This document shows positions 43,424 through 43,975 of a DNA stretch of 64,000 nucleotides, piece after piece. The translations under genes were made by a program, and so were the position numbers. The first letter of the stretch is position 1. The number at the start of each line of letters is the position of its first letter. Origin of the DNA: Escherichia phage Eryne; the sequence record PQ529420. The stretch is one strand, 5' to 3'. Below the pieces are notes generated by a model. The model saw only the letters and a program-made list of their open reading frames with translations. It had not been told where the DNA came from and searched no databases.

Positions 43424-43975
43424 ATGCGGATTACTGATAAGTATGTGTTCTTCTTCTCGGCAAAAGATGAATTTAGCAACTGGTATCTATCATCTTTTAT
43501 TGAACCTTTAGCTCCCAAGTATAATAATTCTATTACAAGTTCTGTTGAATTTACTTGTGTGGAACAATATATGATGTGGAGAAAAGCATGTTTGTTTTAT
43601 GATTACAACATTGCATCTTCTATTTTAACCGGAGATCTAAGATATACAGGAGAAAAAGAACAGGCATATTATAAGCGACTAGGTAGATTAGTTAAAGATT
43701 ACGATGAAGCTACTTGGACTTCTTTACGGGAGAAGATTGTCAAGCGTGGTTTGTATCTTAAATACACACAAAATGAAGATCTCAAAAATAAACTTATAAC
43801 CTACGCAGATAAGGAGTTCGTAGAGGCAAGCCCTTATGATTCTATTTATGGTATCAAAATGGGGATGTGGGATCGTGATGTGGAAAATAAGGACTGTTGG
43901 AAAGGACAAAATCTTTTAGGAAAATGGCATACAGACCTTGCTGTTTATCTAAAAACACAATCTGATATTTCCTGA
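43424..43975 (+). CDS. NADAR/YbiA-like (DUF1768) protein
   Basis: 183 aa; VFFFSAKDEFSNWYLSSF, VEQYMMWRKA, MGMWDRD...GQNLLGKWH align with YbiA motifs FYS..GDFSNF, SEHYFQAQKF, WGDGG..G.N.LG. Confidence 0.55.
   Translation: MRITDKYVFFFSAKDEFSNWYLSSFIEPLAPKYNNSITSSVEFTCVEQYMMWRKACLFYDYNIASSILTGDLRYTGEKEQAYYKRLGRLVKDYDEATWTSLREKIVKRGLYLKYTQNEDLKNKLITYADKEFVEASPYDSIYGIKMGMWDRDVENKDCWKGQNLLGKWHTDLAVYLKTQSDIS

Follow-up and report, generated by a model that had tools for sequence, protein, structure and literature searches.

An open reading frame (ORF) of Escherichia phage Eryne (record PQ529420) was analysed within a stretch of 64,000 nucleotides, referred to as the window. The ORF runs from ATG to TGA, codes for 183 aa and fills the interval 43424..43975 of the plus strand exactly. 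As judged from profile matches, alignments and a structural model, its product is a NADAR-fold protein with intact catalytic residues. Very probably it is an orphan ADP-ribosylglycohydrolase of the NADAR family, carried by a phage, belonging to the AdfN-Bas60 type and acting against DarT1. The features of the window which are discussed below are collected in Table 1.

Table 1. Positions of the analysed features in the window.
Feature	Position	Strand	Remarks
Macrodomain protein (Pfam Macro)	22747..23580	-	About 20 kb from the NADAR gene
AAA ATPase gene	41028..42155		5' of the hairpin
Intrinsic-terminator-like hairpin	42175..42195	.	CCCGC-TTCG-GCGGG followed by TTTTCTT, with an A-run before it; read from the sequence
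Zinc-ribbon/T5orf172 gene, 397 aa	42230..43423	+	Same apparent transcription unit as the NADAR gene
Shine-Dalgarno sequence AAGGAG of the NADAR gene	43412..43417	+	Within the 3'-terminal part of the zinc-ribbon gene, 6 nt 5' of the ATG
Predicted adfN-type gene (stand-alone 183-aa NADAR-domain ADP-ribosylglycohydrolase)	43424..43975	+	Ortholog of AdfN-Bas60 / Phi92_gp223

NADAR Fold and Predicted Catalytic Residues

The comparison with the NADAR (DUF1768) profile, proposed originally as a check, gave a clear result. Pfam PF08719 matched the ORF with E = 3.8e-36 and 125.3 bits, far above the cut-off of 35.1, and the match joined residues 13–168 of the ORF to positions 9–154 of the 163 in the profile. 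The TIGR02464 model ("ribofla_fusion") scored 110 bits (cut-off 73.7) and phrog_1017 was matched with E = 1.4e-49. When solved structures were searched by sequence (phmmer against the PDB), the top match was the NADAR of Phytophthora nicotianae (PnNADAR, 8BAU; E = 8e-12), and E. coli YbiA (2B3W) gave a marginal score (E = 0.11).

The AlphaFold2 model of the protein, built from a 91-sequence alignment, had a mean pLDDT of 96.4 and a pTM of 0.91. Only two significant matches were obtained for this model with Foldseek in the PDB: 8BAU, representing PnNADAR with ADP-ribose (E = 5.6e-9, TM 0.78), and YbiA 2B3W (E = 6e-5, TM 0.64/0.69, probability 1.0); the next structure had an E-value of 4.5. The fold was thus the same as that of YbiA, the structure originally suggested for the comparison, with 8BAU being the better match.

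The original prediction was built on three NADAR motif regions, FxFxS..xFSN[FW], EQY..W and W..D......G.NLLG. Their order and approximate spacing were confirmed, with FFFS at residues 9–12, FSNW at residues 17–20, EQYMMW at residues 47–52 and W149-D-R-D152...W159-K-G161-Q-N163-L-L-G166 at residues 149–166. The literal patterns were not: the first region reads FFFS, not FxFxS, and in the last one, although the motif is present, D152 and G161 are separated by eight residues and not by six.

In PnNADAR, E43, K50 and E125 are the residues contacting ADP-ribose (Schuller et al. 2023, PMC11543638), and in the NADAR of E. coli C7, E88, K95 and D171 are required for the hydrolysis of guanine-linked ADP-ribose and for the rescue from DarT1 (PMC11543638). 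A further lysine (K75 in PnNADAR, K115 in the E. coli C7 protein) is dispensable for catalysis, but the DarT1 rescue depends on it (PMC11543638). In the HMMER alignment, E47, K54, K84 and E134 of the window protein paired with residues 45, 52, 77 and 127 of the 8BAU chain, the numbering of which is shifted by a constant +2 relative to the published E43, K50, K75 and E125. Among the 91 aligned homologues E47, K54 and E134 were invariant and K84 was conserved in at least 90%. E47, K54 and E134 are the predicted catalytic residues of the protein, and K84 is likely its DNA-contact lysine. The third catalytic position is occupied by Glu in YbiA-type NADARs, by Asp in DarT-associated ones and by His in T4-type phage NADARs (PMC11543638); here, it is Glu (E134).

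The assignment of a NADAR fold with intact catalytic residues is made because of the HMM matches, the AlphaFold2 model, the Foldseek matches to 8BAU and YbiA and the alignment of E47, K54 and E134. The loss of the fold or of the conserved catalytic residues had been named at the outset as the observation which would speak against the prediction; the fold was found and all three residues were in place.

Two defence-related entries were also matched, and membership was rejected in both cases. The score for the NCBIfam model "DS32_2 NADAR family anti-phage protein" was weak (25.9 bits; cut-off 240), and the PADLOC candidate PDC-M42C was matched by the protein. All that follows from these matches is the occurrence of NADAR domains in candidate defence systems of bacteria as well.

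Relation to AdfN-Bas60 and Predicted Action against DarT1

The BASEL phages Bas60, Bas61 and Bas62 are reported to encode a NADAR named AdfN-Bas60 (Johannesman et al. 2025, Nat Commun, PMC11825919). The protein was identified through the bas60_, bas61_ and bas62_ locus tags, which correspond to the phages PaulScherrer, EmilieFrey and JohannJBalmer. In these three phages the NADAR gene occupies the position corresponding to that of the window gene and is annotated as a "putative YbiA-like N-glycosidase". The window protein was identical to bas60_0111 (QXV83846.1) at 180 of 183 residues (98.4%), and the same count was obtained with bas61_0107 and with bas62_0106. The window and Bas60 alleles are distinguished by N62S, A96D and T126A, and all three lie outside the conserved columns of the alignment of 91 sequences. 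The two proteins share the length of 183 aa, the catalytic residues and the genus of their phages (Justusliebigvirus), as well as the gene order (AAA ATPase, zinc-ribbon/T5orf172 gene, NADAR) and the gene junction. Apart from the three substitutions, the difference concerns the upstream gene, with five zinc-ribbon repeats in Bas60 and four in the window.

According to the available text of Johannesman et al. (PMC11825919), plasmid expression of AdfN-Bas60 is enough to neutralise DarT1 in phage-free E. coli, and on DarTG1 hosts it brings RB69, T5 and Bas25 back to full titre, these tests being ectopic-expression assays. The idea that a phage NADAR could counter a DarT toxin is thereby supported by a protein differing from that of the window at three residues. 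The proposed target, DarT2, has to be replaced by DarT1: in the same text, AdfN-Bas60 gave T5 no rescue on hosts with DarTG2, a modifier of thymidine, and thymidine ADP-ribosylation is described as not reversed by NADARs, AdfN-Bas60 included (PMC11825919). Plating on DarT2 hosts, put forward originally as a check, is the wrong test because NADARs are specific for guanine-linked ADP-ribose, and a 2025 preprint gave the same guanine-specificity explanation for T4 AdfN. The hydrolysis of guanine-linked ADP-ribose in vitro has been demonstrated for several NADARs (including PMC11543638); in the available literature on phage AdfN proteins, it is detailed for AdfN-T4 only.

The window allele, with its N62S, A96D and T126A differences, would be expected to behave like the Bas60 allele, and the gene may be needed by its own phage in the native context. 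The anti-DarT1 biology has already been published for this 98%-identical ortholog, and no new principle is added by the window gene.

With PnNADAR and the NADAR of E. coli C7 taken as analogues, a mechanism may be proposed at the residue level. In an E. coli host carrying DarTG1, infection would set DarT1 free, and the toxin would modify guanines of single-stranded phage DNA at N2 with ADP-ribose, which would block replication. The phage NADAR would bind the ADP-ribose, with K54 directed to the phosphates and E47 and E134 to the distal ribose, and would hydrolyse the N-glycosidic link to guanine, leaving unmodified DNA on which replication could resume. It would act as a substitute for the host antitoxin DarG1, would need no second phage factor and would be inactive on the thymine-linked ADP-ribose left by DarT2.

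Other ADP-ribosyl marks could be considered as the main targets, namely guanosine-linked ADP-ribose in RNA, cytidine-linked ADP-ribose or the products of ADP-ribosyltransferases (ARTs) other than DarT (YarT, pierisin/ScARP-like), the anti-DarT1 activity then being just one part of a wider erasing function. This reading, which draws on analogy with other NADARs, is improbable. The family reverses guanosine ADP-ribosylation of RNA and some members reverse cytidine ADP-ribosylation; a YbiA-type NADAR is described, in a partly available source, as the antitoxin of the DarT-unrelated ART YarT; E134 is the Glu of the YbiA type; and the same possibility is raised in the discussion of Johannesman et al., as far as its text is available (PMC11825919). 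However, the DarT1 phenotype reported there for the ortholog is strong, with the full titre regained, and such a broader range would be less a competitor of the anti-DarT1 explanation than a supplement to it.

Comparison with YbiA and Other NADARs

The name "YbiA-like", used in the original prediction, held for the superfamily and the fold and was loose with regard to a close relationship. Besides these two properties, the window protein has in common with YbiA (2B3W) the Glu at the third catalytic position and a TIGR02464 score above the cut-off. In a BLASTP comparison, however, the identity was 26% over 82 aa, the phmmer E-value was marginal as given above, and the tree position is outside YbiA: AdfN-Bas60 was placed among bacterial NADARs which are neither YbiA nor DarG1 in the published phylogeny, as presented in the available text (PMC11825919). 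YbiA belongs to an operon of the dinG/ybiB type, whereas the window gene is stand-alone, and YbiA gave cells no protection from DarT1, unlike the Bas60-type protein.

These data also bear on the possibility that the protein is a YbiA-type housekeeping N-glycosidase which destroys reactive intermediates of the riboflavin pathway, a reading that is the source of the names "YbiA-like N-glycosidase" and "riboflavin biosynthesis intermediates N-glycosidase" found in databases. The TIGR02464 score, the Glu at E134 in place of the Asp of DarG1 or the His of T4, and the BASEL annotation agree with it. It is nevertheless very improbable. The similarity to YbiA was weak in comparison with that to PnNADAR (E = 0.11 and E = 8e-12, respectively), no riboflavin genes were found among the scanned ORFs of the window, and a riboflavin-linked context (RibA/RibD fusion or dinG-ybiB operon) was lacking, the 183-aa protein being encoded on its own among small phage genes of unknown function. 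In addition, DarT1 is neutralised in cells by the Bas60 protein, which is nearly identical to that of the window, but not by YbiA, and the published phylogeny, in its available form, sets the Bas60 protein apart from the YbiA clade (PMC11825919).

With the DarG1 type, represented by the NADAR of E. coli C7, and with 8BAU, the window protein shares the fold (TM 0.78 to 8BAU) and the set of Glu, Lys and acidic residue; the counterparts of K84 are K75 in PnNADAR and K115 in the E. coli C7 protein. The identity to 8BAU was only 28%. Unlike NADARs linked to DarT1, the window protein has no N-terminal extension (its catalytic Glu is residue 47, compared with residue 88 in E. coli C7), and its third site carries Glu, not Asp. 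In a Pfam search of the neighbours and the other scanned ORFs of at least 200 aa (23 other ORFs), no ART/DarT domain was detected, and the gene is a phage-encoded orphan with no cognate DarT adjacent to it. DarG1 membership was rejected on these grounds: no adjacent DarT/ART, E134 instead of Asp, and a NADAR domain beginning near residue 6.

AdfN-T4 (gp30.3), by which T-even phages counter DarTG1, is likewise an orphan phage NADAR for which removal of guanine-linked ADP-ribose has been proposed, and its first-helix Glu and Lys align with those of the window protein. In contrast to these common features, no pairwise similarity could be detected (BLASTP E = 1.6), and the residue aligned with E134 is His in T4 gp30.3; the window protein was not counted as a member of the gp30.3 type. 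As stated in the available text of Johannesman et al., AdfN-T4 cannot neutralise DarT1 outside a T-even infection, whereas the Bas60-type NADAR can, and the latter was inferred to be an acquisition independent of AdfN-T4 (PMC11825919). The lack of similarity between the two sequences is consistent with the published view that NADARs were acquired by phages several times.

Distribution and Conservation of the Gene

The window region was 99.1% identical to that of Escherichia phage vB_vPM_PD06 and 92–98% identical to that of about 50 further phi92-like phages (Justusliebigvirus, Stephanstirmvirinae). The NADAR was 100% identical to PAULA_0095 of phage Paula at both the protein and the DNA level, and at least 97% identity at the protein level was observed in 55 phage records of the genus, including Phi92_gp223. 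More distant homologues, with 30–64% identity, were present in 716 phage records, mainly of large myoviruses of Staphylococcus, Listeria, Enterococcus, Bacillus and Klebsiella. Comparison of the ORF with the three BASEL orthologs revealed 6–16 synonymous and 3 non-synonymous codon changes, and judging from these counts, the synonymous excess is a pattern of purifying selection.

Orthologs in many records of the genus are labelled as "hypothetical protein", "YbiA-like N-glycosidase" or "GTP cyclohydrolase II". The last of these labels is wrong and was probably carried over from RibA-NADAR fusion proteins; the proper annotation would be an AdfN-type anti-DarT1 NADAR. The gene illustrates the recruitment by phages of antitoxin-like enzymes against a host defence that chemically marks phage DNA.

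Two of the relatives with 40–42% identity are encoded next to genes of NAD metabolism: one is located directly 3' of a CTP_transf_like (NMNAT-type) gene and the other no more than 3 kb from NAMPT/NAPRTase and Pribosyltran genes. The name NADAR, "NAD and ADP-ribose", comes from such associations (de Souza and Aravind 2012, as cited in the available text of PMC11543638). The two contigs are 354–456 kb long and resemble jumbo phages more than bacteria, and therefore hold no information on the bacterial source clade proposed by Johannesman et al. A role of the window protein in phage NAD+/ADP-ribose metabolism, e.g., together with NAD salvage against NAD-depleting defences, rather than in DNA repair, has in spite of these neighbours a very slight probability. 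NAD-salvage genes were sought among the window ORFs of at least 200 aa and none was found, a NAMPT or NMNAT domain also being absent from the immediate neighbours; the sole PRTase of the window sits in a Ter-like cluster 20 kb away; and the ortholog has, according to the available text, a direct DarT1 phenotype without a phage partner (PMC11825919).

Genomic Environment of the NADAR Gene

The gene for the predicted AdfN-type anti-DarT1 NADAR is the last one in a short rightward unit. It is followed on the 3' side by about 760 bases that are AT-rich (24–29% G+C) and poor in ORFs; beyond them comes a region of 46–51% G+C, the minus strand of which has a conserved ORF of 88 aa. On the other side of the unit, the hairpin listed in Table 1 separates the AAA ATPase gene from the zinc-ribbon gene and is likely the 5' boundary of the zinc-ribbon and NADAR unit. 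The consensus promoter/terminator scan missed this hairpin; in phage Paula, terminators are annotated at the same site on both strands. No convincing sigma-70 promoter was found for the gene pair in the consensus scan. Rfam and tRNA scans of the whole window found nothing, so no RNA element explains the NADAR region.

The presence of a zinc-ribbon gene directly upstream, noted in the original prediction, was corroborated. Its product matched Pfam CapR (E = 1.1e-38) in four stretches, a DUF4379 treble-clef and then, at the C-terminus, T5orf172 (GIY-YIG-like), and was assigned to phrog_681, "endonuclease", with E = 3.4e-84. The TAA of this gene (43421–43423) abuts the ATG of the NADAR gene (43424), and the sequence of the junction was identical in the five genomes compared (the window, Bas60, Bas61, Bas62 and Paula). 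The translational coupling predicted for the two genes is plausible on the basis of this arrangement.

The abutment of stop and start looks like gene packing rather than functional pairing because the adjacency is absent in Phapecoctavirus, in a Klebsiella phage of the Stephanstirmvirinae and in a Mydovirus. In Phapecoctavirus tuntematon, two small genes lie between the zinc-ribbon and NADAR homologues, and in Klebsiella phage FBKp34, with a NADAR 64% identical to that of the window, and in Mydovirus KNP2, the neighbours of the NADAR gene are unrelated to those in the window. The zinc-ribbon repeats of the upstream gene, four in the window and five in Bas60, number three in Phapecoctavirus tuntematon, and the N-terminus encoded by the window copy of this gene is closer to the Phapecoctavirus version than to the three aligned Justusliebigvirus copies. 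Probably the upstream gene is a selfish element resembling homing endonucleases, not a functional partner of the NADAR.

That the two proteins form a two-gene module, e.g., a DNA-targeting subunit with an eraser, has next to no probability: the abutting codons, the Shine-Dalgarno sequence inside the upstream gene, their conservation in all five genomes compared and the upstream terminator setting the pair apart are outweighed by the linkage not being conserved outside the genus, on which the module was rejected, by the gain and loss of whole repeats in the upstream gene among close relatives, which resembles a selfish nuclease, and by the reported ability of AdfN-Bas60 to function alone from a plasmid (PMC11825919, available text).

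A Macrodomain Protein in the Same Window

A second protein with a domain connected with ADP-ribose was noticed in the window, encoded on the opposite strand (Table 1). The nearest solved relatives of this macrodomain protein were SCO6735-like and TARG1-like (E from about 1e-15 to 1e-10), weaker matches were obtained with DarG macrodomains, and it was 30% identical to T4 Tk.4 over 139 aa (E = 1e-17). Tk.4 has been named AdfM and is required by T4 on DarTG2 hosts (2025 preprint). On the strength of these similarities, the phage may carry erasers for both DarT marks, AdfN for the guanine-linked one and a Tk.4/AdfM-like protein for the thymine-linked one. An extended version, in which this two-enzyme kit of ADP-ribose erasers is joined by further NADAR substrates (guanosine-linked ADP-ribose in RNA, cytidine-linked ADP-ribose, marks of non-DarT ARTs), appears rather unlikely, the Glu at E134 being consistent with such substrates. 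The macrodomain gene is located inside the Ter-like cluster, together with genes for vWA-TerF, TelA, TerC, a ComF-like PRTase and a HAD-like hydrolase.

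A macrodomain gene within a Ter-like cluster

The window encodes a macrodomain protein, the gene of which lies inside a tellurite-resistance-type (Ter-like) cluster and is given in the table with the other features discussed here. In relatives, the start of this gene is annotated at a position corresponding to about 23481 in the window numbering, and in Bas62 it is described as a 'putative macrodomain protein' and nothing more. The best matches among PDB structures were 5E3B, 2FG1 and TARG1/OARD1, with DarG macrodomains matching weakly. A comparison with Tk.4 of phage T4 revealed 30% identity over 139 aa (E = 1e-17). 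Tk.4 was named AdfM in a 2025 preprint, where it is shown to be an anti-DarTG2 factor. Because of the resemblance to Tk.4/AdfM, the window may encode both an eraser of guanine-linked ADP-ribose (AdfN) and an eraser of thymine-linked ADP-ribose (the macrodomain protein).

Features of the window and of two metagenome contigs
Feature	Coordinates	Strand	Remarks
Ter-like cluster	16289..24980	-	encloses macrodomain gene
vWA-TerF-like	16289..17083	-	Ter-like cluster member
TelA	18330..19433	-	Ter-like cluster member
TerC	21212..22189	-	Ter-like cluster member
Macrodomain protein	22747..23580	-	Pfam Macro, E = 3e-7
ComF-like PRTase_3	23456..24313	-	Ter-like cluster member
HAD-like hydrolase	24306..24980	-	Ter-like cluster member
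Second AAA-domain ORF	25370..26530		
AAA+ ATPase	41028..42155	+	phrog_2376
Zinc-ribbon (CapR repeat) + T5orf172 nuclease-like	42230..43423	+	
Conserved 88-aa ORF	44737..45003	-	phrog_19316; inside G+C-rich stretch
NADAR relative, contig L010	4001-4477		40-42% identity (both relatives); contigs of 354-456 kb
NADAR relative, contig L012	4001-4480		

Surroundings of the NADAR gene

The zinc-ribbon/T5orf172 gene directly upstream differs between close relatives by entire CapR repeat units, with five repeats in Bas60, four in the window, Bas62 and Paula and three in Phapecoctavirus tuntematon. At its N-terminus, over some 60 residues, the protein encoded in the window resembles the Phapecoctavirus version, which suggests recombination. 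The preceding AAA+ ATPase is named 'FtsH-like protease' or 'ATPase or Zn metalloprotease' in relatives; the AAA domain, at residues ~79-170, is the sole part of it that matches Pfam, and a peptidase domain was not found.

In the region 43976..45250, which follows the NADAR stop codon, come ~760 AT-rich bases (24-29% G+C) containing no convincing ORF, and then a stretch with 46-51% G+C, unusual relative to the local ~37%. Rfam and tRNA scans gave no match here.

NADAR relatives in metagenomes and public records

The two metagenome contigs carrying distant NADAR relatives look like jumbo phages. In one of them, the NADAR relative is located immediately 3' of a CTP_transf_like (NMNAT-type) gene, and in the other, NAMPT/NAPRTase, Pribosyltran and nucleoside deoxyribosyltransferase genes were found nearby. 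These neighborhoods recall the NAD-pathway association behind the NADAR family name.

A NADAR protein 97.8% identical to that of the window was found in four 'Campylobacter phage' records (A145, A150, C3 and A110a; ~146 kb), which also match the region of E. coli Justusliebigvirus phages; this looks like host mislabeling or contamination. In several records the NADAR ortholog is labeled 'GTP cyclohydrolase II', a name most likely inherited from RibA-NADAR fusion proteins.
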